Shown: piece after piece, positions 20,736 through 42,841 of the stretch
Position numbering within the stretch: the first letter of the stretch is position 1
How the letters are laid out: every line of letters begins with the position of its first letter
Assembly (NCBI GenBank): GCA_041651675.1
Contig: JBAZIT010000001.1
Coordinates: 1 to 49,952, forward strand
Direction of reading: 5' to 3'
DNA length: 49,952 bases
DNA from: Candidatus Omnitrophota bacterium
GTDB taxonomy: Bacteria > Omnitrophota > Gorgyraeia > Gygaellales > Profunditerraquicolaceae
Program-made: the position numbers and the translations under genes
The notes under the pieces: generated by a model
The model's input: the letters and a program-made list of their open reading frames with translations, nothing else
Told to the model about the DNA's origin: nothing
Database searches by the model: none

Positions 20736-21710
20736 TTATTTTTTAGCTGCGCTGCTTCTCTTCATGCTGGGCATGAACGGATTACTGCCTGAACCGGCAG
20801 CAGGAAAAACATATTTCTTGGTTGTAACGATGACCGTATCACCGGCAGTTAAGCCGGAAATGATCTCATAATTTTTGTCGTCGGTGATGCCTATTACTAC
20901 TACCCGCTTAACCGGGTTATTGCTGCCGTTATTCTTCAGTAAAACATAGCTTTCATCTTTTTCCTTGCGCACTGCTTCTACCGGCAGGAGCAAAGCATTC
21001 TCCCTGCCTTCTACTTTAAAATCTATTGTCGCGTTCATCCCGGAACGGAAAAATTCCGGGGTTTCTTCAGGGACAAGGTCAACTTTATATATCGTAACAT
21101 TATTGACGGTCTCTGATTCATAATATATATGTTCAACAGCCGCCTTTATTTTTGTATCCAGGTACGCATCCAGAGTAATAAGCGCGCCCTGCCCGAGCTT
21201 GATCTTTCCGATATCGGTTTCATCAACCTGGGCCCGGACGATCAGGTGGTCGGACAAAACAATCACGGCGTCGCTGGTAGTGACGGTCTGGCCGGGTTGG
21301 GTTGTAGCAACAATAACTTCTCCGTTAATCGGAGATAAGAGCGCTATAGGTTTATAAACATCTTCCCAATACTTTAACACTTTCTCTCCCTGGCCTTCGG
21401 CAGCGTCAAGCAAGGCAGCGCGCTCAGTGGAACTCATCATGCCTAAAACCTGTCCATCTTTTACCTGCTCTCCCTCCTTTACGGCAATACTTTCTATACG
21501 GCCGTTGACCGGAGGTTTGACCTCCAGCCGGTTCTTGGGATAGACTGTCCCGGTTGTAGAAATATATGTCTGGATCGCGCCGATAGAAGGCTTGGCCTCC
21601 TTTATAATTTCACTGCTTTGGCCCTGGCCTTTGAACTTTACCGCAATCAACGCAGCAACCGCCAATAAGACCAGGGTCACGAAAATAATCTTTGATTTAT
21701 TTTTTCGCAT
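20736..21710 (-). CDS. MacA/HlyD-type periplasmic adaptor
   Basis: The start is taken at MRKNKSK (ATG 21708-21710). The longer tracked ORF would overlap the upstream TolC gene by 80 nt. The protein has a TM anchor plus lipoyl and beta-barrel adaptor domains. Confidence 0.8.
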   Translation of the reverse strand: MRKNKSKIIFVTLVLLAVAALIAVKFKGQGQSSEIIKEAKPSIGAIQTYISTTGTVYPKNRLEVKPPVNGRIESIAVKEGEQVKDGQVLGMMSSTERAALLDAAEGQGEKVLKYWEDVYKPIALLSPINGEVIVATTQPGQTVTTSDAVIVLSDHLIVRAQVDETDIGKIKLGQGALITLDAYLDTKIKAAVEHIYYESETVNNVTIYKVDLVPEETPEFFRSGMNATIDFKVEGRENALLLPVEAVRKEKDESYVLLKNNGSNNPVKRVVVIGITDDKNYEIISGLTAGDTVIVTTKKYVFPAAGSGSNPFMPSMKRSSAAKK

Positions 21711-23004
21711 ATTCCAACACCTCTCCTTTCGCCTGAATCCAGTTTGCTTCAGCCAGCAAGGCATTTGCCTGGGCATTCAGATAACTCGTTTTTGCGCTGA
21801 CCAGATTATCTTCAATAATCGTCCAGTTATCATAAGTAAGAAAACCGGTGGCGAACTCTACTTCGGCTATTTTAGAACGCTCGCTGGTAGCAATAAGGTT
21901 CTTATACTGGACGCCGACTGTCTCCAGGGCATCCTGCAGGGCTACCCAGGTATTCTCTAAGGCAACAACCAGGGTATCCTGCATACTTCTTTCATTTTCC
22001 TTAAGCTGATTTAAAAAAGCCTTGGCCTGGGATACCTGCGCGGTCCTTAACCCTCCTTCAAATATGGGCATCGAAAGCGTAAGACCGAGGTTCCACTGGT
22101 CGCCCTTGGGCAGCCACTTGGTCCCGTTCTTATTAGCTCCGGCAGACCCGGAAAGCGTAGGCGAAAAATTCGCGTAAGCAGACTTAAGGCTGAATTCCGC
22201 CGCATTTTTCTGGGCTACGAGCTGGAGCAGAGAAGGATGCTTTTTGGCTATAGCTTCCAGGTCCGGCTGGATCCTGGCGTCATCGCTGACCTGAAAATCC
22301 GCTTTGACGTTCATCGGGATAAAAGCTTTTCTGCCCATTTCTTTGGTTAATTGCCTCTGCGCCAGCAGAACATCTCTTTTGGCCTGCTCAAGCTGGAATA
22401 ATGCCTGGGCTAAATTTGCCTCCGCAGTCAGGAGCGCGCCCCGATGCACCAGGCCGGACATATAACGCAAGGTAATCAGTTCGTAATTTTCTTTTCTCTT
22501 CTTCACGATATCCTCGGTAACCTTGATCATCTCCTGGGCCGTTAATAAATTAACGAATGCGGTGCGTAAATTCAACCGGACTTGAGTGGATGTAAACCTG
22601 TAGTTCTGCTGGGAAGCCTGGATAGTTTCTGAAGCAGCCTTTACGTCCTGGATGGTTTTGGTGCCGTCAAATATCAACTGCGTCGCGTTTACCCCGTAAT
22701 TATAGGCATCAGCCGTAGTAGCGGGAGCGTTATCCGAAGCGCTCCTTCCGGTAGAAGCAGTCAGGCTGGCATCAACCTGAGGATAAAGGGTGCTGGCGGT
22801 AATTTTCTTAGCCGCCTCGGATTGTTTTACTTCTTCTACCGCCGCGATCAGGTCCGGATTGTTCTTCGCGGCCTCCTTAATACAATCCGGCCAGGAAAGT
22901 ATCTCCTCGCTGAATCCTAAACTATGGAAAAAAAGTAAAAAAAATAACGTCAGATAATAAACTTTTATACGGCTTAGCATAATGGCTTTAGTGAATTTAT
23001 CCAT
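21697..23004 (-). CDS. TolC family outer membrane factor
   Basis: 435 aa. Signal sequence plus two OEP repeats. Confidence 0.85.
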   Translation of the reverse strand: MDKFTKAIMLSRIKVYYLTLFFLLFFHSLGFSEEILSWPDCIKEAAKNNPDLIAAVEEVKQSEAAKKITASTLYPQVDASLTASTGRSASDNAPATTADAYNYGVNATQLIFDGTKTIQDVKAASETIQASQQNYRFTSTQVRLNLRTAFVNLLTAQEMIKVTEDIVKKRKENYELITLRYMSGLVHRGALLTAEANLAQALFQLEQAKRDVLLAQRQLTKEMGRKAFIPMNVKADFQVSDDARIQPDLEAIAKKHPSLLQLVAQKNAAEFSLKSAYANFSPTLSGSAGANKNGTKWLPKGDQWNLGLTLSMPIFEGGLRTAQVSQAKAFLNQLKENERSMQDTLVVALENTWVALQDALETVGVQYKNLIATSERSKIAEVEFATGFLTYDNWTIIEDNLVSAKTSYLNAQANALLAEANWIQAKGEVLEYAKK

Positions 23005-23024: not shown

Positions 23025-24509
23025 TTACTTGTTCTTGGCAGCGTTAAGCACCAGAAGCATCTTTTCTTGAAAAACATCCCGGCTGTTCTGGCCAGGCGTA
23101 TCATCCAGGCTGCCTCCGCCTAAGACTGCATAAGCTTTCACTTCGTTAGCCAGCTTGGAAAATTGTATCAAAATAAGTTCTTTTTGCGCCCGATAAAGCG
23201 AACGCTGCGCATCCAGAACGCTTAGGTAGCTGTCAATCCCATTCGCATAGCGTATGCTTGAAAGCCGATAAACCTTCTGCGCGGAATCAACCATAGATTG
23301 CTGCACTGCTATTTGCTGATCCACTGTGCCTTGCACAGCCAAGACATCAGCCACCTCTTTAAAAGCTGTTTGAATAGCTTTTTCATACCGGGTGAGCGCG
23401 ATTTTCCGGGTTGCCTCGCTCACTCTATAGGCAGCCCAGGTACCGGGATCAAAAATAGGCATCACGATCTGAGGCGAGTAGATCCAGGTCCCTTTGCCGG
23501 GAGAGAATAAACCGGTAAAGGAACTGCTTGCCGAACCGATTGCGGTAGTCAGCGAAATACTGGGGAAAAAAGCAGCCCGGGCTGCCCCGATATTAGCATA
23601 AGCGCCTTTTAATTCGTGTTCGGCAGCCAGAATATCTGGCCGCTTAAGGAGCACAGTGGAAGATAGGCCGGGAAAAATATCTTTAAATGGAGTAACGCCT
23701 GCCAGGTCAATAGGCAAAAGTCCTTCCGGGACAGGAGAGCCGGCTAAAAGATCTAACGCGTTTTTATACTGGGCCAATCGTTGTGTATAAAGGATTAAGT
23801 CTCCTTTGGCTGTATCCACCTGGGTTTGAGCCCGCTGCAGATCTATTTCATTTACCAGCGCCACCCTGTGTTGACGCAGGACCAGATTGTAAACAGTTTC
23901 CTGTGTTTCCAGGGTGGAACGGGCCAAATTCAGAGCTGCCTCATCCGCGGCAATAGCCAAATACGCCCGGACCACCTCCGAGATAAGCGCGACCTGCACG
24001 CTGCGCCGGGCCTCCTCTGTCCTCAAATATTCTTCCAGTGCCTGCTTGGTCAAACTGCGGATACGGCCAAAAAGATCGATCTCCCAGGCAGTAATCCCCA
24101 GATCAGCGGTATATTGTTCCACCACCTTAGGATATCCCGCAGTCAAAAAATCCGAAGAATAGCGCTGTTTGGTTAAGCCTCCCTGCGCATCAAGAACCGG
24201 GAACAAGGCAGCCTGTTGAACGCCATATAAGGCCCGCGTTTTTTCCACGTTTAAAACAGCTAACCGCAGGTCCCGATTATTTTCAAGGGCCAGCTGGATG
24301 ATCTGCTGAAGCTTTGGGTCGGTAAAGAACTCCCGCCATTTGAGTTGCGGAGCATCTACAACATTGGCTGCCGGCTGCTCCTTCGGGTAAGCATTTCCTT
24401 TAGGCCACTGTTCAGGAACTGCCGGCCCCGGCCGGTTGTATTTCGGGGCCAGGGTGCAACCGCTTAAACAAACAATAATTCCTAAAATTAAAACGGGTAT
24501 TTGCTTCAT
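23025..24509 (-). CDS. RND efflux outer membrane factor lipoprotein, NodT/OprM family
   Basis: 494 aa. Lipobox LSGC plus OEP repeats. It lies directly downstream of the RND pump gene. Confidence 0.9.
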   Translation of the reverse strand: MKQIPVLILGIIVCLSGCTLAPKYNRPGPAVPEQWPKGNAYPKEQPAANVVDAPQLKWREFFTDPKLQQIIQLALENNRDLRLAVLNVEKTRALYGVQQAALFPVLDAQGGLTKQRYSSDFLTAGYPKVVEQYTADLGITAWEIDLFGRIRSLTKQALEEYLRTEEARRSVQVALISEVVRAYLAIAADEAALNLARSTLETQETVYNLVLRQHRVALVNEIDLQRAQTQVDTAKGDLILYTQRLAQYKNALDLLAGSPVPEGLLPIDLAGVTPFKDIFPGLSSTVLLKRPDILAAEHELKGAYANIGAARAAFFPSISLTTAIGSASSSFTGLFSPGKGTWIYSPQIVMPIFDPGTWAAYRVSEATRKIALTRYEKAIQTAFKEVADVLAVQGTVDQQIAVQQSMVDSAQKVYRLSSIRYANGIDSYLSVLDAQRSLYRAQKELILIQFSKLANEVKAYAVLGGGSLDDTPGQNSRDVFQEKMLLVLNAAKNK

Positions 24510-27500
24510 TTAATGTTTTTCCCCGGAATCAATAATATTCGGAGCAACAGTTACTGCCTGCGCCGGTGTCTGTTTCTTACGGCTGAAAAAACGGGTCACC
24601 AGGATAAAAAATAACGGGATGAAAATAAGATCAATGAAGGTAGCCGAAAGCATTCCGCCGACAACTGCCGTTCCAATGGCATTCTGGGCGCCTGCTCCTG
24701 CGCCGGTAGTTATGGCTAGCGGCAAGACACCGAAGAAAAAAGCCATAGAGGTCATGATAACCGGCCGGAAACGCGTTCTGACTGCTCCCAGAGTTGCCTC
24801 AACCAGTTTTTCTCCGTGTTCCAGGCGCTGCTGCGCGAACTGAATGATCAGGATGGCATTTTTAGTCGATAACCCTAAGGTAGTCAAGAACCCGATCTGG
24901 AAGTAAACGTCATTAGGCATACCACGTAAACTCGTTGCCAGCGTAGCTCCAAAAACACCCAGCGGCAGCATCAACAGATTAACAACCGGAATGCTCCAGC
25001 TTTCATATAACGCTGCTACGCATAAAAAAATGATCAAAATAGAAAAAGCGTAAAGCGGGCCTGTCTGCGCTCCGGCCTGGCGTTCCTGGTAAGAAAGCCC
25101 GGTCCAATCATACCCAAACTCCCGGGGAAGCTTGGCAGCAATCTGCTCCATAGCCTTCATTGCTTCTCCTGAGCTTTTTCCCTTAGCTGCCTCGCCAAGG
25201 ATGTTAATAGAAGGAAAAGCATTGTAACGTTCTAATTTCGGAGATCCGAAAATCCAGTGGCCGGAGGCAAAAGAAGAATAAGGAACCATCTTTCCCTGGG
25301 AGTTGCGCACATAAAGATTCTTCAGGTCTTCGGGCAGCATACGGTAAGGAGCATCAGCCTGGATGTCTACATGCTTGATCCGGCCGTCTTTAATAAAATC
25401 ATTCACATAGCTGCTGCCAAAAGCAGTAGAAATCGTACCCTGGATAGCAGCAATCGAAACACCCAGGCTCCCGGCCTTCTCCCAATCTATATCAATCTTA
25501 TATTGAGCCACATCTTCCAGGCCGTTTGCCCGCACGCGGGTTAAGCGCGGGTCATTATACGCCATTTCCAGAAGCTTATTCCGGGCTTCCATCAGTTTTT
25601 CGTGCCCTGCGCCGCCGCGATCCTGCAGTTGGAAATCAAAACCTTTAGCGCTGCCTAATTCAATGATTGCCGGGGGAGAAAAAACAAAAACCAGCGCTTC
25701 TTTATAGGACATAAACTCCTTCATGGCCCGGTCGGCTATCGCGTCTGCCTTTAACTCCGCCTTTTTGCGCAGATCCCAGTCCTTAAGCTTGATAAAAGCC
25801 AAACCGGTATTTTGCCCGCGGCCAGCCTGGTTCATCCCGGAAGCAGTTAAAATAGATTCGACTGCTTCTTTTTCATTATCTATAAAATATTGCCTGACCT
25901 TTTCCATTACCGCTTCCGACTGTTCCAGGGTAGAACCCGAAGGTAAATTGCCCATAATAATTAAAACTCCCTGGTCCTCATCCGGCAGATAACCCGTAGG
26001 CATCCGGATAAGCAAAAATAACATTGCCGCCACGATTATAAAATAGGAAAAGATATAACGCGCGCTCTTATTAAAAGAATGGCCCACCAAACGCACATAT
26101 AAGTCGCGGGCCCGGAAAAAATTCCGGTCAAACCAGCTAAAGAACGGCCGCAACAGCCAGATCCCTCCTTCGGCAGGCTGATGGCCTTTGGCTACCGGTT
26201 TCAGGAACGTCGCGCAGAGGACCGGAGTCAAGATTAAAGCTACAACTACCGAAAGGAGCATGGAAGCAATGATGGTGACGGAAAACTGGCGGTAAATAAT
26301 ACCGGTGGAACCTGCGAAAAACGCCATCGGGCCAAAGACCGCCGAGAGGACTAACCCGATACCGATCAGCGCTGGAGTGATCTGTTCCATGGATTTAGCA
26401 GCAGCCTCCCGCGGAGAGAGGCCTTCTTCCCGCATCAGGCGCTCTACGTTTTCGACTACGACAATCGCGTCATCTACGAGTAAACCGATAGCCAGGACCA
26501 TGGCGAACATCGTCAACATGTTAACGGAAAAACCAAAGAACCCCAGCGCGGCGAAAGTCCCCAATAAAACTACGGGCACGGCAATCGTCGGGATAAGTGT
26601 CGCCCGTATATTCCCCATAAATACATACATAACCAGAAAAACCAGCACGATTGCCGCAACCAGGGTCTTAACTACCTCTTTGATGGCTACCCGGGTAAAA
26701 GGCGTAGTATCATAGGGATAATTTACTTTCATCCCTTGAGGAAAATAACGGCTTAACTCTTTCATCTTCGCTTTGATTGCATCTACCGTATTCAGCGAAT
26801 TAGCCCCGGGTTCCTGGCGGATAGCCAGGGCTGCCGCTGGCTGGCCCTTATTGAAGTAAACCTTTATATCCGCCTGGTCGCTGCCTAATTCTGTGCGGCC
26901 CACATCTTTAATCCGGATGACCGAACCATCAGGATTGATGCGCACAGGGACATTGGAAAACTCCTCGGGAGTCTTAAGCAGGCTTTGCACTATAATGGAA
27001 GCATTCAAACGCTGGCCGCTTACTGCCGGAGCGCCTCCGAACTGGCCTCCGGAAACCTCAATATTGTAATTCTTTAACGCCTGGGCAACATCTTCCACGG
27101 TCAATCCGTAGCTGGTCAGCTTCTTGGGATCAAACCAGACACGCATAGCGTATTCGCTGCCCATACCCTCGGCTTCGCCGACTCCGGGCACGCGCGCCAG
27201 GACCGGCTGGATAACGCTGATCATATAATCGCGTAAATCAATTTCGTTCATGCTGCCGTCTTCGGAAACCAATCCCACAATTATAAGATAATTATGAGTA
27301 GACTTTTGCACTGAAACACCCCTACGTTGCACTGAATCCGGCAGGCGGGGCATAGCCAGTTGAAGCTTGTTTTGCACTTTAGACCAGGCAATATCCGGAT
27401 CAGTCCCCGGGGCAAAGGTCAATTCAATAGCTGACATACCGGAGGAATCGCTTGAGCTGGACATATAGAGCATCCTGTCCAGTCCGGTCATTTGCTGCTC

Positions 27501-27698
27501 AATGATCTGGGTTACGCTATTCTCCACAGTCTCTGCCGAAGCACCGGTATAAAGAGAGCTTATGCGGATTGACGGCGGAGCAATAGGCGGATATTGCGCG
27601 ACAGGCAGAGTATAAACAGCCAAACCACCTAAAACCATTATCATAATGGCAATTACCCAGGCAAAAACAGGGCGTTCAAGAAAGAATTTTGATAGCAT
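24510..27698 (-). CDS. RND multidrug efflux permease (AcrB/MexB-like, HAE1)
   Basis: 1062 aa with 12 TM segments and two large periplasmic loops. It carries conserved AIGLLVDDAIVVVEN. Confidence 0.95.
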   Translation of the reverse strand: MLSKFFLERPVFAWVIAIMIMVLGGLAVYTLPVAQYPPIAPPSIRISSLYTGASAETVENSVTQIIEQQMTGLDRMLYMSSSSDSSGMSAIELTFAPGTDPDIAWSKVQNKLQLAMPRLPDSVQRRGVSVQKSTHNYLIIVGLVSEDGSMNEIDLRDYMISVIQPVLARVPGVGEAEGMGSEYAMRVWFDPKKLTSYGLTVEDVAQALKNYNIEVSGGQFGGAPAVSGQRLNASIIVQSLLKTPEEFSNVPVRINPDGSVIRIKDVGRTELGSDQADIKVYFNKGQPAAALAIRQEPGANSLNTVDAIKAKMKELSRYFPQGMKVNYPYDTTPFTRVAIKEVVKTLVAAIVLVFLVMYVFMGNIRATLIPTIAVPVVLLGTFAALGFFGFSVNMLTMFAMVLAIGLLVDDAIVVVENVERLMREEGLSPREAAAKSMEQITPALIGIGLVLSAVFGPMAFFAGSTGIIYRQFSVTIIASMLLSVVVALILTPVLCATFLKPVAKGHQPAEGGIWLLRPFFSWFDRNFFRARDLYVRLVGHSFNKSARYIFSYFIIVAAMLFLLIRMPTGYLPDEDQGVLIIMGNLPSGSTLEQSEAVMEKVRQYFIDNEKEAVESILTASGMNQAGRGQNTGLAFIKLKDWDLRKKAELKADAIADRAMKEFMSYKEALVFVFSPPAIIELGSAKGFDFQLQDRGGAGHEKLMEARNKLLEMAYNDPRLTRVRANGLEDVAQYKIDIDWEKAGSLGVSIAAIQGTISTAFGSSYVNDFIKDGRIKHVDIQADAPYRMLPEDLKNLYVRNSQGKMVPYSSFASGHWIFGSPKLERYNAFPSINILGEAAKGKSSGEAMKAMEQIAAKLPREFGYDWTGLSYQERQAGAQTGPLYAFSILIIFLCVAALYESWSIPVVNLLMLPLGVFGATLATSLRGMPNDVYFQIGFLTTLGLSTKNAILIIQFAQQRLEHGEKLVEATLGAVRTRFRPVIMTSMAFFFGVLPLAITTGAGAGAQNAIGTAVVGGMLSATFIDLIFIPLFFILVTRFFSRKKQTPAQAVTVAPNIIDSGEKH

Positions 27699-34640: not shown

Positions 34641-35768
34641 TCAACCCAAACTCCTGCGGAAGCGAAAAGCGCTAAAGGTGATCACCAAAATACCCATGAT
34701 AATTAACGGAATAAGCTGTGGCCAGAGAACCTCGATCCCTACTCCCTTCAAGAACAAGCTCCGCACAATGACCATAAAATAACGCAAAGGATTAACCAGG
34801 GTAAACCACTGGATCCATTGCGGCATATTGGCTATCGGATAAGCAAACCCCGATAAGAGCATAGTCGGCATATAAAACAGGAAGACCGACATCATCGCCT
34901 CCTGCTGGGTTGAGGATATTGTAGAAATAAATAAACCTATCCCCAGAGTGGTAAATAAATACACGCAGGTAGACAAAAGCAGTAAAAGGAGATTGCCTCT
35001 TAAAGGTATATGAAACCAGAGGACTCCCAAGACGGTAATCAGGATGATCTGGACCAGCGCGATTATCGCAAACGGAAGGAGCTTGCCGACAATAAGGTCA
35101 AGCGGCTTTAAGGGACTGACAATCAACTGCTCCATTGTGCCGATCTCTTTTTCTTTGACTATCGCCATAGAGGTCAATAAAAGCGACATCATCGTCACAA
35201 TGATGGCAATTACGCCCGGAAGATAATAATTCCTGGAGATAAGATTACCGTTAAACCAGGCCCGGTCCCTCAGATCTACCCTGGGGGAGCTGCCGGTTAA
35301 GCCGGCTGCGTCCAATTCCTGCCTTAGCAGGTCATACTGATAATCGCTTACGATCGTATTAGCATAACCCATAATGACCATTGCCGTATTCGAATCCGTA
35401 CCGTCAAAAGCCAGTTGAATAGAAGCGTCCTTTCCGGCATTAAGGTCACGGCCAAAACCGCGGTCAATATGGATAACCACGCTGGCTAAGCCCTTATCCA
35501 GGATGAAATTTTGCTCCTTTTCGCTGAAGATATAATGCTCCGGGATAAAATACTTGGAATAGGTGAACCTGCGCAGAAGCTCACGGCTCTCCTTAGTGTT
35601 ATCCCGGTCTAAAATAGCCGTCGGCACATAGTTTATGTCTTTATTCGCGGCATATCCAAAGACGAGAATCTGAACCAGCGGAGTAATAAAGATAACCGTT
35701 CTCATCCGCGGGTCGCGGAATATCTGCTTAAATTCCTTAATCAGGATCGCCTTAGCCCGTTCAAACAT
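34641..35768 (-). CDS. ABC-2 type transporter permease (YbhR/YbhS-like)
   Basis: 375 aa. One N-terminal TM segment, a large periplasmic domain and a C-terminal ABC-2 membrane domain. Confidence 0.85.
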   Translation of the reverse strand: MFERAKAILIKEFKQIFRDPRMRTVIFITPLVQILVFGYAANKDINYVPTAILDRDNTKESRELLRRFTYSKYFIPEHYIFSEKEQNFILDKGLASVVIHIDRGFGRDLNAGKDASIQLAFDGTDSNTAMVIMGYANTIVSDYQYDLLRQELDAAGLTGSSPRVDLRDRAWFNGNLISRNYYLPGVIAIIVTMMSLLLTSMAIVKEKEIGTMEQLIVSPLKPLDLIVGKLLPFAIIALVQIILITVLGVLWFHIPLRGNLLLLLLSTCVYLFTTLGIGLFISTISSTQQEAMMSVFLFYMPTMLLSGFAYPIANMPQWIQWFTLVNPLRYFMVIVRSLFLKGVGIEVLWPQLIPLIIMGILVITFSAFRFRRSLG

Positions 35769-35769
35769 A

Positions 35770-36912
35770 TTAAGCCACCTTCTTCTTGAATCTCCTCACC
35801 GCTATGCTAAACATTATCAGGGCAAACAAAAATAAAAAGATCGTCTCATCCCATAAAACATGCATTGTGCCGCCTTTTAGGAATAACTCCCTTAAGACAA
35901 CGATATAATAGCGCGCCGGAACAAAATAAGTGATCGCCTGGACAAATTGAGGCATATTAAAAATCGGGTAGATAAACCCGGAAAGCAGCACAGTCGGCAG
36001 CATGGTAGTCAGGGTAGCCAGCTGGCTGGCCATTAATTGGGTCCGGGCAACTACCGAGATCAGTATCCCCTGCGATAAAGCTCCGGTCAGGAACAGCGAA
36101 CTTAAGAAAATAAGCAGCGGATAGCTGCCCCGGAAAGGCACGCCAAACAAAACCCTGGCCATGATCACGCCTACTATAAGGTCAAAGAACCCGATGGTAA
36201 AATAAGGAATGAACTTGCCGATGACCAGTTCCGGAGCTTTTACGGGCGTAGAGATCAACTGCTCCATTGTCCCCCTCTCCCATTCGCGGGCTATGCAAAT
36301 GGAAGTAAGCAGCCCGGCGATGATCATGATGATCATCGCAATAACCCCGGGAACAATGAACCAGGTGCTGGTCAGGCCCATATTAAACCAAACCCTTGAG
36401 CGGGCATCCACTGTCTGGGGCTTTTGCAGCCCCCGGGAGGCAAACGTACTGCTCAACAGGCTCACATTATAATTGGCAACTACTGTCCGCACATAATTCA
36501 TGGCAATGGTGGCGGTATTTGCGTCGCTTCCATCTACAATGAGCTGCAGAGGCGCAGTCTTGCCGGATTCCAGATAATGAGAGAAATCCTTAGGTATGAC
36601 CAGGGCCAGCATGGCCTCTCCCCCGTTGATCATATGCTCGATCTGGCGGTAGTTATCCGTATAGCCGATTATTTTAAAGTATTTGGAATTTTTGAAATTG
36701 AGCATAAAATCCCGGCTCAATTCGCTGGAAGCATCCTGATTCCAGACCAGGGTAGGGACTTTATCAATATCCAGGCTCAGCCCGTAGCCGAAAATCAGCA
36801 GCAGGAATATCGGGATGGCCAGGGCCAACCCCAGGGAGCGCGGGTCGCGTTTAATCTGGATAAATTCCTTCCAGGCTATGGATCTAATTCTTCTTAGGCT
36901 CTGTCCGGTCAT
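35770..36912 (-). CDS. ABC-2 type transporter permease (YbhS/YbhR-like)
   Basis: 380 aa paralogue of the downstream permease, with the same architecture. Confidence 0.85.
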   Translation of the reverse strand: MTGQSLRRIRSIAWKEFIQIKRDPRSLGLALAIPIFLLLIFGYGLSLDIDKVPTLVWNQDASSELSRDFMLNFKNSKYFKIIGYTDNYRQIEHMINGGEAMLALVIPKDFSHYLESGKTAPLQLIVDGSDANTATIAMNYVRTVVANYNVSLLSSTFASRGLQKPQTVDARSRVWFNMGLTSTWFIVPGVIAMIIMIIAGLLTSICIAREWERGTMEQLISTPVKAPELVIGKFIPYFTIGFFDLIVGVIMARVLFGVPFRGSYPLLIFLSSLFLTGALSQGILISVVARTQLMASQLATLTTMLPTVLLSGFIYPIFNMPQFVQAITYFVPARYYIVVLRELFLKGGTMHVLWDETIFLFLFALIMFSIAVRRFKKKVA

Positions 36913-37849
36913 ATTCTTCTATTGAGGAAACAAAAACGTCTTCCAGGGAAGGAAGAATTTTATTCACGCTGGATTCCCCCGCGCCTGCTTGCTGCAGGAA
37001 ATCCTTGATCGCGGGAATAGCTTTAGAGCTGTCATAGACAACAGCATGGATATTCGCTCCAAAGAGCGCGGCTTCTTTGACTCCTTCTATTTGAGCGATT
37101 TTTTCCAACCAGGCCTGGGCATCAGCCAGGGTAATCTCCAGAACCTCATTTTTCATCACATTAGTCTTCATCTCCTGCGGCGTACCCGCGGCGATGATCG
37201 TGCCGTGATAGATCAGGACCATGCGGTTACAATTTTCCGCTTCATCCATATAATGGGTAGTAACAAAAATAGTCACTCCCTGAGCAGCCAATCCTTTAAT
37301 AATGCCCCAAAAATTAGCCCGGGTTATCGGATCAACTCCGGATGTCGGTTCATCAAGAAAAATGATCCTGGGTTTATGGATCAGCGCGCACCCCAGGGCC
37401 AGGCGCTGTTTCCAGCCGCCGGCTAAAGTGGCGGTCAGCTTATCTTCCATGCCTTCCAGCCCCGCAGTCCTCACAGTTGTCTCCAGGCGTTCTTTTTTAT
37501 CCTTTTGCGGGATCTTGTATATACCGCTGTAAAAATTAATGTTCTCTTCTACGGTCAGGTCATTATAAAGAGAAAATTTCTGGGACATATAACCGATATT
37601 TTCTTTGATCTTATGCTGCTCCCTGATAATATCAAAACCACCCACTTCCCCTGAGCCGGAAGTAGGAGTAATGATCCCGCAGAGCATCCTGATAGTAGTG
37701 GATTTACCCGCGCCATTCGGCCCCAGGAATCCGAAGATCTCGCCCGCTTTAACCTCAAAGTTGATCCGGTTGACCGCGGTAAAATCCCCGAATTTCTTTT
37801 CTAAGGACTGGACGCTTACGGCAATATTATTCGGGCTGGTTTCTTTCAT
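36884..37849 (-). CDS. ABC transporter ATP-binding protein
   Basis: 321 aa. Walker A GPNGAGKST, signature LAGGWKQR and Walker B IFLDEP. Confidence 0.9.
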   Translation of the reverse strand: MKETSPNNIAVSVQSLEKKFGDFTAVNRINFEVKAGEIFGFLGPNGAGKSTTIRMLCGIITPTSGSGEVGGFDIIREQHKIKENIGYMSQKFSLYNDLTVEENINFYSGIYKIPQKDKKERLETTVRTAGLEGMEDKLTATLAGGWKQRLALGCALIHKPRIIFLDEPTSGVDPITRANFWGIIKGLAAQGVTIFVTTHYMDEAENCNRMVLIYHGTIIAAGTPQEMKTNVMKNEVLEITLADAQAWLEKIAQIEGVKEAALFGANIHAVVYDSSKAIPAIKDFLQQAGAGESSVNKILPSLEDVFVSSIEEYDRTEPKKN

Positions 37850-38567
37850 ACTCTCCGATCACCTTAATAAACGCCTCTTCCAGGGTTTTAGTCTGGAATT
37901 CTTTTTTAGCCTTATCCGGAGAATCGCAGCGCAGGAGCTTACCCTTGTGCATCAGGCCGACCCGATGGCAGCGTTCAGCCTCATCCAGATAGCAAGTGGA
38001 GCAGAAGATAGTGACTTTTTCCTTAAGCAGGCCATAGAGTATGTTCCAAAAATCCCGGCGGGAAACCGGGTCAACGCCGTTAGTGGGCTCATCCAGGAAT
38101 AAAACTCTCGGCGTATGTATGAGGGCGCAGGCTAAGCCTAATTTCTGCTTCATTCCTCCGGACAGCTTTCCCGCAAAACGCTGCTTAAAAGGCAGGAGCC
38201 CGGAAAAACCCAGCAGGCGCTCAATAGCCTCTGCGCGTTTATCCTTGGCTACCCCGTAAACATCGGCATAAAAGTTAATATTTTCCAGGACGCTTAATTC
38301 TTCATAAAGCCCGAAACGCTGGGACATATAAGCGATATGCTCTTTTAGCCCTTCGGCTTCTTTTACGGTATGCTTATTATAAACCCAGGCCTGGCCTTCC
38401 GTAGGATCCAGGATCCCGGTTAAAAGGCGCATAGTCGTAGTCTTTCCCGCTCCATCCGGGCCGACTAAACCGAAGATCTCGCCCTCCTGGACCTCAATGT
38501 TCAGGTGGTCTAAGGCTGTTAACTGCCCGAATTTACGGGTAAGGTTTTCGGTCTTTATGGTAACCAT
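37827..38567 (-). CDS. ABC transporter ATP-binding protein
   Basis: 246 aa. Walker A GPDGAGKTT, signature LSGGMKQK and Walker B LFLDEP. It overlaps the next ATPase gene by 23 nt. Confidence 0.9.
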   Translation of the reverse strand: MVTIKTENLTRKFGQLTALDHLNIEVQEGEIFGLVGPDGAGKTTTMRLLTGILDPTEGQAWVYNKHTVKEAEGLKEHIAYMSQRFGLYEELSVLENINFYADVYGVAKDKRAEAIERLLGFSGLLPFKQRFAGKLSGGMKQKLGLACALIHTPRVLFLDEPTNGVDPVSRRDFWNILYGLLKEKVTIFCSTCYLDEAERCHRVGLMHKGKLLRCDSPDKAKKEFQTKTLEEAFIKVIGEYERNQPE

Positions 38568-38576
38568 GGCCTGAAT

Positions 38577-39413
38577 TTATTCGATCATTATGTATGCGTC
38601 CGCGGGCATCCCGGGTTTTAGATCCAGGCTGGAATTATCAACCCTGACCTTTATCCGGTAGACGTATTTTACTCTCTCTTCGCTGGTCTGGATATATTTA
38701 GGAGTGAACTCGGTCTGGCTGGAGATGAATGAAACCCGGCCGTTATATTTCTTTCCGCGATAGGAATCTGTTTCCACGTAAGCCTTTTGCCCTAATTTAA
38801 CCTTGCCTAAATCCGTTTCATTTATGTAGGCAGTGACCCAGAGATCATCCAGATTCACGGCGGTAAAAACCGGAGAGCCCGGCTGCACGACCTCTCCGGG
38901 AAGAGCGCTTTTTACCAGCACATAACCGTCCAGCGGGCTGGCTAAGTCTGCCCAGCCTAATTTCGTATTAGCCAACTCTAAGGAGGCGGCCAACTGCTTA
39001 ATATTAGCCGAATCAGTATCCATAGTAGTCTTGGCTGCATCGCGCTGCTGCACGGAAATCGCGCCGGCCTTAAGCAGATTTTCAGCCCGAAGATAGTCGT
39101 CATAATCCAGCTTATACTGGTATTCCGCCAGCTTAAGCGCTGCTTCTGCCTCAGCCTGGATCTTGCTCAACTCATCCTTATTGAGCCGGGCGACAATATC
39201 GCCTTTCTTAACCACCTTGCCCTCATCAGTCAAAAGCTCGATCACCTGGCCGGCTACCCGAAAAGAGATGCGTACATCATCCCCTTCAATATTGCCGGAA
39301 ACTTTGATGATTTTGCTATTGGCTTTTGTCTCTTTTAATATAAAGACAACCGCCGTATAGGCCGCAATGGCCAGGATCAGCGCTATGAGAATGAATTTCT
39401 TGTTTTTTTTCAT
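38577..39413 (-). CDS. HlyD-family membrane fusion protein (YbhG-like)
   Basis: 278 aa with a TM anchor, lipoyl domain and coiled coil. ATGA overlap with the upstream TolC gene. Confidence 0.85.
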   Translation of the reverse strand: MKKNKKFILIALILAIAAYTAVVFILKETKANSKIIKVSGNIEGDDVRISFRVAGQVIELLTDEGKVVKKGDIVARLNKDELSKIQAEAEAALKLAEYQYKLDYDDYLRAENLLKAGAISVQQRDAAKTTMDTDSANIKQLAASLELANTKLGWADLASPLDGYVLVKSALPGEVVQPGSPVFTAVNLDDLWVTAYINETDLGKVKLGQKAYVETDSYRGKKYNGRVSFISSQTEFTPKYIQTSEERVKYVYRIKVRVDNSSLDLKPGMPADAYIMIE

Positions 39414-40999
39414 TTTTCCTCCCCGGGAAAACCGTTACCCATGATCCTATCCAGTCTTGCCTTAGCCATAATATAATCATATGTGCTTTCAGCAAGGTTC
39501 TTTTCTACATTCGCCAGAGAAACCTGGGCATCCAGCACATCCAGGTTTATGCCTACGCCGTTATCATAACGCACGTAAGATATCTTCAGGGCTTCTTTGG
39601 CATCCTCCAGGTTATCTTCCTGGGATTTTATGACTGCGGCTGCCTGCTTCAGGTCCAGGCAGGCCTGCCTTACATCCACGGCCACCTGATCAGCGGTATT
39701 ATCCTTGCTGATCACCGCCTGCATATACTTGGCCCGGGCGCTGTCCACTTTCGCCTTGGTTGAGAATCCGTCAAATATCGCCAGGCGCACGGTAAAGCCT
39801 ACATTCCAGTTATTATGCCTGCTGTTAAACATATTCCCCAGGTTATTGGATTGATAATAATACTGGGCGTTGGTTTCCAGCTGCGGAAGCCATCCGGCCC
39901 GGGCATACTTAATTGCCCATTTACTTATGTCTATGCCTAAGCCTTTTAAGATCATTTCCGGCTCATTCAGATAGGCGGTTTTCAAAAAATCCCCCTCCTT
40001 GATCTCGATCGGGCTATAAAGCAGCTTATCCTGGATGATTATCCCGTCGCTTACCTTTTGGCCGAGCAGCTTGTTCATCTCCGCGATGATCAGGTCTATC
40101 GCGTTCTGCGCGCTGATCAACTGCGGCTCTAAAAGCGAGACCTGCACCTTGGACTGTAAAACATCAAACCGGGAAGCAGTCCCCTGCTGGAATTTGCTTT
40201 TAACTTCTTCATAGTGGCTTTCAGCCTGGCCCACCAGGTCCTCGGCAATACGCTTTGTTTCGTAAGCCAGCAGCAGCCCGTAATAAAGCCGCTTAGTCTC
40301 CAGCTCTACATTCAGCCTGGTGGCGCGCAGGGTTTCTACCTGCGTCTTCAAGCCAAGTTGCGCCTGCCTGAGGGCGGCAATATTAGCTCCGCCGCTATAG
40401 ACAGTGTCACTGACAGTTAAGCCCATAAGATTATTATTTTTATATCCGGTAAATACGCCGATGTCTTTTTTACCGCTGCTGGCGGTACTGGTAAGAACAG
40501 CGGCATTCCGCGTATAACCGGCATTAAAACCAACCTGCGGGAGAAATGCGCTTCTGGCGTTCAATATATCCGCATCTGCCACATTCAGCGCATACTCCTG
40601 TATCCGGATATCTTTATTATTCTGGAAGGCGATCTTAAGCGTATCTTTCAGCGAAGTAAGGACCAGGGTTTGCGGCTTTTTTTCTTCGCAAAAACCGGCG
40701 GAATAGCTCAACAAGCAGCAGCCAAAAACAGCAGCCGCTAGCGCCAGCTTGGCTGACTTACGGACAATGCTTTTAAATTCCTGGTAAAAGGGGTAATTTT
40801 TGTTCAGGCTGAAGAACCTGGCGTTGGCCCGGTAATAGCTCTGCAGGACCCCCTCTTTTTGGAGATTGTAGAGGGTCCTTTGGAAGACGCCGGGCTTGGT
40901 TTTTAAGAGGCGGCCGAGCTCCTGGATATAATACTGCTCTTCGGGGTGGCCGTAAAAAAGCTTGAGGAGCTTGAGGGTATTCTTGGAGAACTGCCTCAT
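39410..40999 (-). CDS. TolC-family outer membrane factor with in-frame N-terminal winged-helix-like domain and internal signal-peptide-like segment
   Basis: The tracked ORF starts at GTG 41008. ATG 40997-40999 has AGGTG 6 nt upstream. Roughly aa 1-82 show a wHTH pattern (LKLLKLFYGHPEEQYYIQELGRLLKTKPGVFQRTLYNLQKEGVLQSYYRANARFFSLN). RKSAKLALAAAVFGCCLLSYSAGF follows, and then canonical OEP repeats. Confidence 0.75.
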   Translation of the reverse strand: MRQFSKNTLKLLKLFYGHPEEQYYIQELGRLLKTKPGVFQRTLYNLQKEGVLQSYYRANARFFSLNKNYPFYQEFKSIVRKSAKLALAAAVFGCCLLSYSAGFCEEKKPQTLVLTSLKDTLKIAFQNNKDIRIQEYALNVADADILNARSAFLPQVGFNAGYTRNAAVLTSTASSGKKDIGVFTGYKNNNLMGLTVSDTVYSGGANIAALRQAQLGLKTQVETLRATRLNVELETKRLYYGLLLAYETKRIAEDLVGQAESHYEEVKSKFQQGTASRFDVLQSKVQVSLLEPQLISAQNAIDLIIAEMNKLLGQKVSDGIIIQDKLLYSPIEIKEGDFLKTAYLNEPEMILKGLGIDISKWAIKYARAGWLPQLETNAQYYYQSNNLGNMFNSRHNNWNVGFTVRLAIFDGFSTKAKVDSARAKYMQAVISKDNTADQVAVDVRQACLDLKQAAAVIKSQEDNLEDAKEALKISYVRYDNGVGINLDVLDAQVSLANVEKNLAESTYDYIMAKARLDRIMGNGFPGEEK

Positions 41000-41011
41000 C
41001 GCCCGCACCTA

Positions 41012-41028
41012 ATATGTATTTTGCATAT
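41012..41028. promoter_or_regulatory. operator-like palindrome in the 5' UTR of the wHTH-TolC gene
   Basis: ATATGTA-TTT-TGCATAT, with one mismatch from a perfect inverted repeat. A further half-site ATATGCT at 41066-41072 lies inside the promoter spacer. Confidence 0.4.
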
Positions 41029-41049
41029 AAAAATATTCATTTGAATACA

Positions 41050-41078
41050 ATTATATTCATTTTACATATGCTTGTCAA
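41050..41078 (-). promoter_or_regulatory. consensus sigma70-type promoter of the wHTH-TolC / ABC-2 efflux operon
   Basis: Minus-sense TTGACA-17 nt-TATAAT, with both hexamers perfect. It lies about 50 nt upstream of the ATG. Confidence 0.6.
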
Positions 41079-41088
41079 GATATTTTGT

Positions 41089-41559
41089 TTATGGTGTGCA
41101 GCTTTGCAGCTTGGTGCCATCTGCGCAAATACAATAATAGCAGGTGTTGCCAGGCAGTTTTTGGGCTAAGGATGTGCGTACGCCATAATTTTGGCATATC
41201 TGACCGCCCACGGCATTGTAATGCGTGTAGAGCCACGCTGAATTGGTTAGGTTATTAATGCTTACAATAGTATCACCATCAACAGCCGCTGCAATTGGCC
41301 AAATGTTATCTGCAGGGTAAACGCCGTGAATTGCATAATAAGATAGTAGTGCCCTCCGCATGGCATCCAGGTTAGCATACACTTGTGATTTTTGGGCTTT
41401 AGCTACATTAGCAAAATAGCGGGGTATAGCGACCAGGGCGAGGATACCGATAATTACTACGACAATGATAAGCTCAATTAAAGTAAAACCATGATCCCTG
41501 CCTGCCGGCAGGCAGTTTTTTTGTGATAGACTTTTTTTAAAAGGCGCGCTCATTAACAT
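41089..41559 (-). CDS. prepilin-type N-terminal cleavage/methylation domain protein (pilin or pseudopilin)
   Basis: 156 aa. G|FTLIELIIVVVIIGILALVAIP with Glu at +5. It has an unusually long 24-aa leader and a Cys-rich C-terminus. Confidence 0.8.
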   Translation of the reverse strand: MLMSAPFKKSLSQKNCLPAGRDHGFTLIELIIVVVIIGILALVAIPRYFANVAKAQKSQVYANLDAMRRALLSYYAIHGVYPADNIWPIAAAVDGDTIVSINNLTNSAWLYTHYNAVGGQICQNYGVRTSLAQKLPGNTCYYCICADGTKLQSCTP

Positions 41560-41627
41560 TTAGTTTATTCCCCCCTCCAGAATTGTCAAGGGGTTTTGGA
41601 TAATCTTTGCTACAGGCATCAAAATAC

Positions 41628-41655
41628 TTGAATTCTAGCCTTAAAAAAGTATAAT
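41628..41655 (+). promoter_or_regulatory. putative promoter of the + strand secreted-protein gene
   Basis: TTGAAT-16 nt-TATAAT, followed by SD GAGGAGG before ATG 41676. Confidence 0.45.
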
Positions 41656-41675
41656 GTGTTTAAGAGGAGGAATAA

Positions 41676-42140
41676 ATGAAAAAATTATTGGTCAGTTGTG
41701 CGTTTTCCTTGGCAGTTCTCTTAGCTGCAAGCGGGCCTGCCTATTCTGCGGCTATGGATATCCAGGGCTTAGTGGATAATTTCTCTAAAGCCACTGACCT
41801 GCAAAGGGTGCAATTCTTAAAAGACAACCTCGGCAAAGAGATATCCTGCGCAGGAACAGTCAGCAATGTGGGAGAATACAATTTCTTTGATACGGTAAAC
41901 GACCAGGGTAACACCTACTACCAGGTCAGCACAACCCAGCAGAAAACTAAAAATAAGGTTCCCTACCAGCTGATTTTCCTGTTTAAAGATAAAGATAAGG
42001 TAAAAGATATTGATAAGGGCCAGAGTATCCAGAAAGACGGCAAGATCATCCGGATAGTTGACGAGCGCCTGCAGATCGCGGTGTGGATCTTCTGCGGAGA
42101 ACTAAGCGGGAACGATAAGGCTTTATTTAAACAGGATTAA
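41676..42140 (+). CDS. secreted hypothetical protein
   Basis: 154 aa. It has a signal peptide ending AYSA and a strong SD. I recognise no family. Confidence 0.6.
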   Translation: MKKLLVSCAFSLAVLLAASGPAYSAAMDIQGLVDNFSKATDLQRVQFLKDNLGKEISCAGTVSNVGEYNFFDTVNDQGNTYYQVSTTQQKTKNKVPYQLIFLFKDKDKVKDIDKGQSIQKDGKIIRIVDERLQIAVWIFCGELSGNDKALFKQD

Positions 42141-42184
42141 CTCTTCCCTGCCTGCGTACCTATAATTATTAAAATCCCGGATTA

Positions 42185-42203
42185 TATATGCAAAATGCAT
42201 ATA
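42185..42203. repeat. second copy of the ATATGCA-N3-TGCATAT palindrome, in a convergent intergenic region
   Basis: TATATGCAAAATGCATATA is a perfect 19-nt palindrome around AAA. An extra half-site TGCATAT is at 42217-42223. Confidence 0.4.
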
Positions 42204-42247
42204 GATATATCTACTTTGCATATATGGCTTTGACGCTCTTAAGCTCT

Positions 42248-42841
42248 CTAGGACGGCTTAAGTATTCCTCCCGACACGATCAGTTTTATCCCCTCTTCAA
42301 CCGTCATCTCTAAAAACTTTACCTTGTTCTTAGGGACCAGGATAAAAAATCCGCTCCAGGGACTGGGCGTAGAGCCGATTAGAACATGCACCAGCTCCTG
42401 GCCAAGCTTTTCCTGGGCCTCCCGAAAGCCGTCATTAGTCATAAAACCTACGGACCATATTCCTTCTGACGGGTACTCTACCAGGACAACTTTCTTGAAT
42501 GCGGGCTTCTCCTTGGTAAAAATAAAACCGACTATTTCTTTTATCGGGGGATAGAGCTGGCGGATGCCTGGAAGCTTTAAAAACCATCCCTCTAATACCG
42601 GCAGCACCCTTTTACTCAATAAATGCGAGACAATGAATCCTAGTATCAGGATCAGCAATATCCCCAGGATAATGCCGACCCCGGGAATAGAAAAACCCAC
42701 TATTTCCCTTAAGTATTTATTGACCATTACCCCGAAAAGATTATCCAGAAATTTGAAAATAATAAAAAGAAGATAAAGAGTAATGAAAACCGGCAGGCCC
42801 ACGAGTATCCCGGCGGCAAAATAGCGCTTTAATCTATTCAT
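42248..42841 (-). CDS. DUF502 family membrane protein
   Basis: 197 aa. Two N-terminal TM helices with the GLPVFITLYLL pattern, and a conserved C-terminal soluble part. Confidence 0.75.
   Translation of the reverse strand: MNRLKRYFAAGILVGLPVFITLYLLFIIFKFLDNLFGVMVNKYLREIVGFSIPGVGIILGILLILILGFIVSHLLSKRVLPVLEGWFLKLPGIRQLYPPIKEIVGFIFTKEKPAFKKVVLVEYPSEGIWSVGFMTNDGFREAQEKLGQELVHVLIGSTPSPWSGFFILVPKNKVKFLEMTVEEGIKLIVSGGILKPS

Follow-up and report, generated by a model that had tools for sequence, protein, structure and literature searches.

A putative winged-helix autorepressor joined through an internal signal-peptide-like segment to a TolC-family outer membrane channel in Omnitrophota

We analysed a 49,952-nucleotide stretch of DNA from a Candidatus Omnitrophota bacterium (contig JBAZIT010000001.1, positions 1 to 49,952; hereafter the window), in which a gene on the minus strand (39410-40999, with ATG 40999 as the start and the stop codon at 39410-39412) encodes a 529-aa protein: an 81-aa winged-helix domain is followed first by 23 residues that resemble a Sec signal peptide and then by an entire TolC-type outer membrane factor (OMF). 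The gene heads an operon of the order OMF, membrane fusion protein (MFP), two ATP-binding cassette (ABC) ATPases and two ABC-2 permeases. The first-pass annotation of this DNA had described a winged helix fused in frame, via a signal-peptide-like segment, to a TolC-family OMF at the head of a YbhGFSR-like operon, and these sequence claims held. In the explanation that we favour, to which as a whole we assign a probability of about 0.6, the fusion is genuine and ancient and joins what would be the operon's own repressor to its first structural gene; the product would be one polypeptide with a cleaved internal signal peptide, releasing the OMF and leaving a membrane-anchored autorepressor.

The fused reading frame and its conservation

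The reading frame stayed open across the junction of the winged-helix and TolC parts, with zero stop codons, and no ATG, GTG or TTG occurred from codon 73 to codon 92, in line with the earlier statement on the junction. The open reading frame (ORF) program had placed the start of the gene at an in-frame GTG (41008) lying inside the Shine–Dalgarno (SD) sequence. The predicted mature OMF (residues 105-529; 39413-40687, minus strand) was recognized by Pfam OEP and by its TolC fold. Two OEP repeats spanned residues ~115-521 (Pfam PF02321, E 3.5e-70, score 236 against a cut-off of 22), and in Foldseek searches the C-terminal part matched the TolC protomer fold with E ~1e-22 and TMt of 0.8-0.86 to TolC, ST50, VceC and OprM; CmeC was also among these matches (TMt ~0.8). 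The AlphaFold2 (AF2) model of the fused protein, made with a 120-sequence alignment, had a mean pLDDT of 87. The OMF reached neither NCBIfam TIGR01844 type_I_sec_TolC (170.5 bits, cut-off 225) nor TIGR01845, the NodT lipoprotein subfamily (118, cut-off 210). In public databases the window protein (P0009) is named only 'TolC family protein [Candidatus Omnitrophota bacterium]', and because annotation pipelines give all these proteins the name 'TolC family protein' the regulator goes unseen.

A search with the full-length protein recovered at least 120 clusters (90% identity) of proteins of 516-562 aa, all from Omnitrophota, with query coverage of 96-100% and identity of 55-86%. When the 85-aa N-domain alone was used as the query, eight small proteins and zero fusions were found; the idea that the fusion is unique to this genome, which this search suggested, was ruled out by the full-length search. 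The loci themselves were surveyed in one genome per GTDB species (80 loci), with hidden Markov models of both halves run against stop-to-stop ORFs. Both halves lay in a single ORF in 54 of the 80 loci (L003-L056), which answers the question raised by the first-pass annotation as to whether homologues keep the fusion. One locus (L081, the same as L002) carried two adjacent genes, and about 24 encoded the OMF without this N-domain. The identity of the fused ORFs ranged overall from 52 to 86%. Among the 120 proteins the mean pairwise identity was 0.67 for residues 1-81, 0.66 for the TolC part and 0.22 for residues 82-105. Since the winged helix and the channel were conserved to the same degree, purifying selection acts equally on both; in the linker, judging from the alignment, character alone is conserved and sequence is not.

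The N-terminal domain and the operators upstream of the operon

The N-domain (residues 1-81; 40757-40999, minus strand) was assigned as a winged-helix DNA-binding domain from AF2, Foldseek and its conservation in the 120 sequences. The AF2 model contained helices at residues 6-17, 25-32 and 36-49 followed by strands at 52-57 and 60-65, with a pLDDT of ~90, and this H-(b)-H-H-b-b topology of residues 1-65 is that of a winged helix. The recognition helix was KPGVFQRTLYNL and the wing YRANARFF, after which a C-terminal helix enters the hydrophobic segment. The residues that were near-invariant in the alignment cluster in the third helix (K35-P-G-V-F-Q-R41 and L43) and in the wing (Y56, A58-N-A-R61 and F63), and the net charge of residues 1-85 was about +11. 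The nearest structural neighbours were of the ArsR/SmtB and MarR types (SqrR, HlyU and AntR, rmsd ~2.2 A over 77-82 columns); a Foldseek search with the N-domain alone returned the Csa3 winged helix, MepR, MexR and MarR-family proteins, and the top 50 matches were all winged-helix regulators. Taken singly these matches were weak, at E-values of 0.02 or higher, and no curated family was matched. On the strength of the model, we regard the N-domain as a winged helix of an uncurated family. An AF2 model of the N-domain only, made with an eight-sequence alignment, was poorer (pLDDT 75.6, wing unformed), and its Foldseek E-values never reached 0.001.

An exhaustive search of 1.84 billion representatives found 838 relatives of the N-domain, most of them ~90-120 aa or ~180-200 aa long; outside the OMF fusions the family thus consists mainly of stand-alone proteins of the shorter class or of the longer ones. 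In P0005 and P0007 (138-149 aa), relatives from the first search, the winged helix is paired with a nucleotidyltransferase domain (PF01909/PF18765).

The promoter that had been noted before upstream of the gene, TTGACA-17-TATAAT, was present, as was an AGGTG 6 nt before ATG 40999. The -35 hexamer TTGACA (41073-41078, minus strand) is kept, as (c)TTGACA, in nearly all of the 55 related loci, and the -10 hexamer TATAAT (41050-41055, minus strand) follows after a 17-nt spacer; together (41078-41050) they form the sole 12/12 promoter match within 39300-42400. The SD-like AGGTG (41006-41010, minus strand) is weak evidence, a core SD being found at the true start in just 10 of 43 related loci.

Three palindromes lie on the minus strand between the -35 hexamer and the start codon. 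Operator O1 (ATATGTA-AAA-TGAATAT, 41053-41069) has two mismatches to ATATGCA-N3-TGCATAT and covers the promoter spacer and the -10 hexamer; the latter shares 3 bp with the right half of O1 and then extends into the gap between O1 and O2. In relatives the right half-site at this position is GCATATAAT. Operator O2 (GTATTCA-AA-TGAATAT, 41033-41048), one 20-21-bp phase past O1, is a variant with a 2-nt spacer that was also found in the close relatives L003-L005. Operator O3 (ATATGCA-AAA-TACATAT, 41012-41028) has one mismatch and is the palindrome that the first-pass annotation had picked out for a binding assay; it is one of three phased operators. The same layout is common to the upstream regions of all the winged-helix loci, where TTGACA is followed by tandem 17-bp palindromes ATATGCA-N3-TGCATAT, the first of which overlaps the -10 hexamer. 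Counted from the start of the -35 hexamer, the left half-sites occur at +8/9, +29/30 and +50 (sometimes +70) and the right half-sites at +18/19, +39 and +60, and the phasing is therefore 20-21 bp.

The distribution of these sites followed that of the N-domain. Counting as an operator any site with at most two mismatches to ATATGCA-N3-TGCATAT, we found 78 in 6.7 kb of promoter-proximal DNA of the winged-helix loci against 20 in 674 kb elsewhere in these loci; in orthologous loci devoid of the winged helix there were two in 247 kb. In the window there were eight matches against 2.7 expected. The same operators are kept in the split-gene relatives L002/L081 and L083, so that they accompany the winged helix whether it is fused or split and whether the pump is of the ABC or the resistance-nodulation-division (RND) type, and are missing where an orthologous locus lacks the domain. 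Of all the observations, this shared distribution speaks most strongly for the N-domain as the putative DNA-binding autoregulator of the operon.

A distal pair of operators, 21 bp apart, was found at 42186-42223. The first site (42186-42202) is a perfect ATATGCAAAATGCATAT and the second (42207-42223) has two mismatches. The pair sits 46 bp past the stop codon of a gene for a 154-aa protein (41676-42140, plus strand), between the 3' ends of this gene and of a DUF502 gene (42248-42841, minus strand). In L006, L007, L009, L011, L021, L022 and L028 a comparable pair or single site precedes the fused gene by 650-1220 bp, and in L009, where the position was checked, the pair lies just beyond the 3' end of the divergent homologue of the 154-aa gene. 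The distal pair might serve in DNA looping, act as a roadblock against read-through or belong to another promoter.

The junction, its predicted processing and alternative explanations

The segment between the two domains (residues 82-104, SAKLALAAAVFGCCLLSYSAGFC; 40688-40756, minus strand) resembles a Sec type I signal peptide in its basic n-region (K81/K84), its h-region of ~13 residues, within the usual ~10-15, and the small residues at -3 (G) and -1 (C) of its c-region. It departs from one in that it does not stand at the precursor N-terminus and begins at residue ~82, behind a folded 81-aa domain. In the fusions a near-invariant K81 is followed by 0-3 residues, often including a second K/R, and then by an uncharged span with a median length of 20 residues, compared with 17 in the N-terminal signal peptides of unfused orthologues; the best 10-residue Kyte–Doolittle hydrophobicity of the segment was ~3.0. 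In the AF2 model the hydrophobic segment is traversed by a helix (residues 72-97), from which a disordered stretch (residues 98-110) leads to the TolC fold.

We assessed the cleavage site by counting residues over the columns of the alignment. Among the 120 sequences, position -3 was G in 69, A in 19 and L in 16, position -2 was F, Y or L, and position -1 was C in 79, A in 26, S in 8 and G in 3, 116 of the 120 in all; position +1 was E in 57 and Q in 35, and position +2 was E in 84 and D in 24. The junction thus fits the -3/-1 rule, and a signal peptidase I cut is predicted at C104|E105 (GFC|EE). The mature OMF would begin EEKKPQ..., a semi-tryptic peptide from its N-terminus would start EEKKPQTLVLTSLK, and orthologous mature OMFs would begin with QE or QD. 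The first-pass annotation had placed the cleavage at SYS/A, which is not where the conserved motif lies. Lipoprotein processing at the conserved Cys was ruled out, since F or Y precedes this residue and it is therefore not the Cys of a lipobox. A terminator-like hairpin with a T-run was seen at 40733-40749 (minus strand) within the segment, in a poorly conserved region; the scan was of consensus only and gave seven such sites against 4.1 expected in the region.

Translation from ATG 40999 would yield one 529-aa precursor, whose basic winged-helix domain would fold and stay in the cytoplasm while the hydrophobic segment (residues 85-98) acts as an internal signal sequence and engages the signal recognition particle and SecYEG in an N-in orientation. 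Signal peptidase I would cut after G-F-C104, and the mature OMF (E105-529) would go to the outer membrane to serve the HlyD/ABC/ABC-2 pump. The ~104-residue remnant, a winged helix with a hydrophobic tail, would be either anchored in the inner membrane in the manner of ToxR or freed by signal-peptide peptidase, site-2 protease (S2P) or SppA; S2P and SppA are known to clear signal peptides. Such a second, intramembrane cut of the remnant is purely hypothetical. Dimers of the remnant would bind O1-O3 over the spacer, the -10 hexamer and the leader and repress their own operon, with a 1:1 stoichiometry of repressor to exported OMF. Of the possibilities listed by the first-pass annotation, N-in insertion followed by cleavage is the best supported, as the one that best fits the conserved -3/-1 site.

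It is unlikely that the OMF is instead made by internal initiation at a non-canonical start (ATT/ATC/ATA of Ile-78 or CTG of Leu-85), the full-length fusion being a minor product or not made at all. Residue 78 is nearly always encoded by ATH, in the window an AGGAA lies 9 nt upstream of it, and a separate TolC start at this ATT was among the earlier suggestions. The third position of the Ile-78 codon proved to be free in the fused loci, however (ATT 28, ATC 11, ATA 11), as fits a constraint on the amino acid rather than a start codon, and AGGAA is not conserved: it is made up of a variable codon and the conserved Glu-74 codon, and relatives have AAGAA, ATGAA or ACGAA. In about half of the 54 fused loci no ATG, GTG or TTG occurs between -6 and +7 codons of K81, the position of such a codon varies where one is found, and fusions of XRE, TetR and AbiEi regulators to the OMF, described below, also have no Met at the junction. 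On the other side, the OMF of the split relative L002 begins at TTG, and with the weak use of SD sequences in related genomes an SD may be dispensable; because core SD sequences are so scarce at true starts, a missing SD at the junction is weak evidence. Near-cognate starts reach a few per cent of the efficiency of AUG, and an OMF needed at the stoichiometry of the pump would hardly be supplied in this way.

We consider it very unlikely that the protein stays uncleaved, as a bitopic protein of the ToxR/CadC kind whose permanent anchor would tether the TolC part to the inner membrane as a periplasmic sensor or an unusual channel. The topology is that of ToxR (an N-in helix-turn-helix (HTH), one hydrophobic helix and a periplasmic C-terminal domain), the AF2 helix over residues 72-97 is continuous, and the uncharged span slightly exceeds that of the unfused signal peptides. 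A permanent anchor would have no need, however, of the conserved small residues at -3 and -1 followed by E/Q-E/D, and in the unfused orthologues (55-65% identity) the OMF carries an ordinary cleavable signal peptide. Cleavage also seems required for two reasons: the stretch from the hydrophobic segment to the first strand of the TolC equatorial domain measures ~12 residues, which, given the known architecture of TolC, is far too short for a tethered channel to reach and insert into the outer membrane, and the fused OMF is the sole OMF gene of its operon.

That the N-domain is not a transcription factor, and serves as a cytoplasmic targeting, holdase or timing domain while the palindromes belong to another regulator, is highly improbable. 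The curated DNA-binding models all remained below threshold and the structural matches are individually weak. Against this stand the palindromes, which track the winged helix across fused and split forms and across ABC and RND pumps and are absent where the domain is absent, the clear DNA-binding regulators found elsewhere at the same position (XRE, with HTH_3 at E 1e-12, TetR_N and AbiEi), the uniformity of the top 50 structural matches and the strong positive charge. A recent fusion or assembly artefact, a third possibility in the first-pass annotation, or a pseudogenising deletion that is recent and confined to this genome, has a negligible probability: broken or chimeric versions do exist (L001), but an open frame in 54 species-level genomes from many studies and assemblers, at least 120 clusters with identity down to 52% and ~66% conservation of both halves exclude an assembly error, a frameshift or a recent accident.

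Several points weigh against the explanation of a cleaved precursor that leaves an autorepressor. Cleavage, DNA binding and repression are all things that we infer. The best Foldseek E-values of the N-domain were just 0.02-0.04, Pfam and NCBIfam gave no HTH match above cut-off for it (the best being HTH_Crp_2 in Pfam, E 0.086), and a profile search of the PDB gave it no significant sequence relative. Cys at -1 is allowed for signal peptidase I yet unusual. With ~20 residues, the connection from wing to membrane is short and could hinder DNA binding by an anchored dimer. The weak use of SD sequences leaves near-cognate initiation at Ile-78 (ATH) or CTG conceivable. Finally, because reversal of the fusion needs both a new stop and a new start, its persistence could reflect a ratchet and not an advantage.

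Recurrent fusions, related systems and neighbouring genes

The fusion of a regulator to the orthologous OMF was not restricted to the winged helix. XRE domains (HTH_3, E ~1e-12) were fused to it in L060 (6255-7832) and L063 (from 6318), and such XRE–OMF fusions, of 506-519 aa, made up about a dozen protein clusters. A complete TetR (TetR_N and TetR_C) was fused to the OMF in P0207 and P0211 (639-640 aa), the latter encoded by L084 610-2532, and an AbiEi_4-like module in L075 (5631-7784). The regulator–OMF fusions of L060, L063, L075 and L084 all head the same six-gene operon, and in the XRE, TetR and AbiEi fusions the last helix of the regulator enters a hydrophobic segment that ends in G-x-C|E/Q. 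XRE loci have palindromes of their own that differ from those described above, such as TACTATTATAATAGTA, which occurs twice in L063. In a neighbour-joining tree of the OMF cores, which is rough and has no support values, winged-helix-fused, XRE-fused and unfused forms were interleaved. From these fusions and the tree we conclude that the joining of regulator, signal peptide and OMF is recurrent in the phylum and not a single accident.

In the split relatives the regulator and OMF genes are separated by a gap of 8-14 nt (L002 and L083); in L083 the winged helix is a separate gene and the partner pump is of the RND type. The first-pass annotation had named a closely related genome with two genes at the junction as a finding that would speak against it, and formally such a relative exists (L002/L081, also L083). 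It represents one of the 55 winged-helix loci of the species representatives, at ~54% identity, and so reveals the ancestry of the fusion and not an error. The fusion may have come about when the 8-14-nt gap, with the stop and start between the two genes, was lost; separation of the products at the signal-peptidase site would be the reason why it is tolerated, or favoured. A more far-reaching idea, which we hold to be less likely than not, is that an export-coupled device has evolved repeatedly in Omnitrophota, in which the repressor matures only after the OMF has engaged Sec and signal peptidase I has cut, so that the used signal peptide is the transcription factor. If so, there would be a 1:1 feedback between export of the channel and transcription of the operon, at least four unrelated regulator families (winged helix, XRE, TetR and AbiEi) would have been recruited independently, and the remnant would perhaps be cut further by a site-2 protease or SppA. 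Such a device would parallel, in bacteria, the Rem signal peptide of mouse mammary tumour virus or release of the SREBP type. Export coupling may be a selected function or a tolerated by-product.

Taken singly, the parts of this system are ordinary: the putative repressor is a winged-helix HTH protein, the operators are palindromes over a sigma-70-type promoter, the signal peptide is of the Sec kind, and the pump, with its OMF, is YbhGFSR-like. Their linkage is not. In E. coli the cecR(ybiH)-ybhGFSR operon encodes first a separate cytoplasmic TetR-type regulator and contains no OMF gene. It shares with the Omnitrophota operon an MFP, one or more ABC ATPases, two ABC-2 permeases and a regulator in first place, which is also of TetR type in the relative L084, whereas the Omnitrophota operon begins with an OMF and carries the regulator in the same polypeptide, upstream of the signal sequence. 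ToxR, TcpP and CadC, which bind DNA while tethered to the membrane, combine an OmpR-type winged helix and a periplasmic sensor domain through an anchor that is not a substrate of signal peptidase. The fused protein resembles them in its N-terminal cytoplasmic winged helix, single hydrophobic helix and periplasmic C-terminal part, and differs in that this part is a complete outer-membrane channel whose separation is predicted by the conserved -3/-1 site. PutA of enterobacteria likewise has an autorepressor DNA-binding domain fused N-terminally to the product of its operon, with membrane association linked to repression; it differs in lacking a signal peptide and in being neither exported nor cleaved. 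In the RseA/RseP system a cut on the periplasmic side is followed by an intramembrane cut that frees an N-terminal cytoplasmic domain, and RseP also cuts liberated signal peptides. There an anti-sigma factor is freed and the first cut, by DegS, depends on a signal, whereas here the first cut would be made by constitutive signal peptidase I. MepR and MexR, of the MarR/ArsR type, are small dimeric winged-helix repressors with palindromes that overlap the promoter of an efflux operon, as proposed here, but they are free cytoplasmic proteins, and the N-domain has no significant sequence match to them. The Rem/Env precursor of mouse mammary tumour virus is reported to have a 98-residue signal peptide that regulates gene expression after signal peptidase cleavage, is extracted from the endoplasmic reticulum by p97 and acts on RNA export (PMC5371415). 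The likeness lies in a very long signal peptide with a regulatory N-terminal extension; Rem is eukaryotic and viral, whereas the Omnitrophota remnant is proposed to be a DNA-binding repressor of its own promoter.

We found no description of regulator–OMF fusions in the literature searched, the coverage of which was limited, so that this is not proof of novelty. The system builds on two known designs, the fusion of an autoregulator to its target and the membrane-tethered regulator, with a substantial chance of a new mechanism in which the transcription factor is a signal peptide. If processed as predicted, it would be, as far as is known, the first bacterial folded transcription factor within a cleavable signal peptide. 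It would mean that natural outer-membrane proteins can use Sec signal sequences far from the N-terminus, it would tie the dosage or activity of a regulator in a simple manner to successful export, and it would explain the merging of regulator and target in very small, streamlined cells. Signal-peptide predictors that consider the N-terminus only probably miss these fusions, and ATATGCA-N3-TGCATAT defines a testable regulon in an uncultured phylum.

Downstream of the fused gene, on the minus strand, the operon continues with the HlyD-family MFP (38577-39413, the ATG of which overlaps the OMF stop codon as ATGA), two ABC ATPase genes (37827-38567 and 36884-37849; Pfam ABC_tran) and two ABC-2 permease genes (35770-36912 and 34641-35768; Pfam ABC2_membrane_3). 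HlyD_D23, ABC_tran twice and ABC2_membrane_3 twice in one operon place it in the YbhGFSR type; HH_YBHG was recorded on the MFP of L084. The six-gene order was identical in all related loci long enough to show it. In L013 (8836-10281) and L039 (3131-4027) both ABC ATPase genes apparently share a single ORF, which recalls the fused double ATPase YbhF of E. coli. In L026 (954-3248) the winged helix, signal peptide, OMF and MFP occupy one stop-to-stop ORF of ~765 codons; in its close relative L027 the OMF and MFP genes are separate, and L026 may be a further fusion or a sequencing error. L001 (3117-3530) holds a 137-aa ORF that is 72% identical over the winged helix and hydrophobic segment and is followed, after ...CQEEPAQG, by unrelated sequence and opposite-strand genes, as in a disrupted copy or a chimeric metagenome contig.

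The product of the 154-aa gene upstream is a secreted protein without a Pfam match, and the gene is a conserved divergent neighbour in ~20 related loci and in L001; where it lies next to the fused gene, it would therefore share the operator-bearing intergenic region. In the window, a pilin-like gene with an N_methyl motif (41089-41559, minus strand) stands between the two. Two other efflux systems are encoded on the minus strand of the window. The first consists of a MacB-like ABC protein (18763-20730), an MFP (20736-21776) and an OMF (21697-23004) with an ordinary N-terminal signal peptide ending GFS|EE, and in the second a lipoprotein OMF (23025-24509, lipobox LSGC) adjoins an RND pump (24510-27698), so that normal N-terminal signals, too, are in use for OMFs in this organism.

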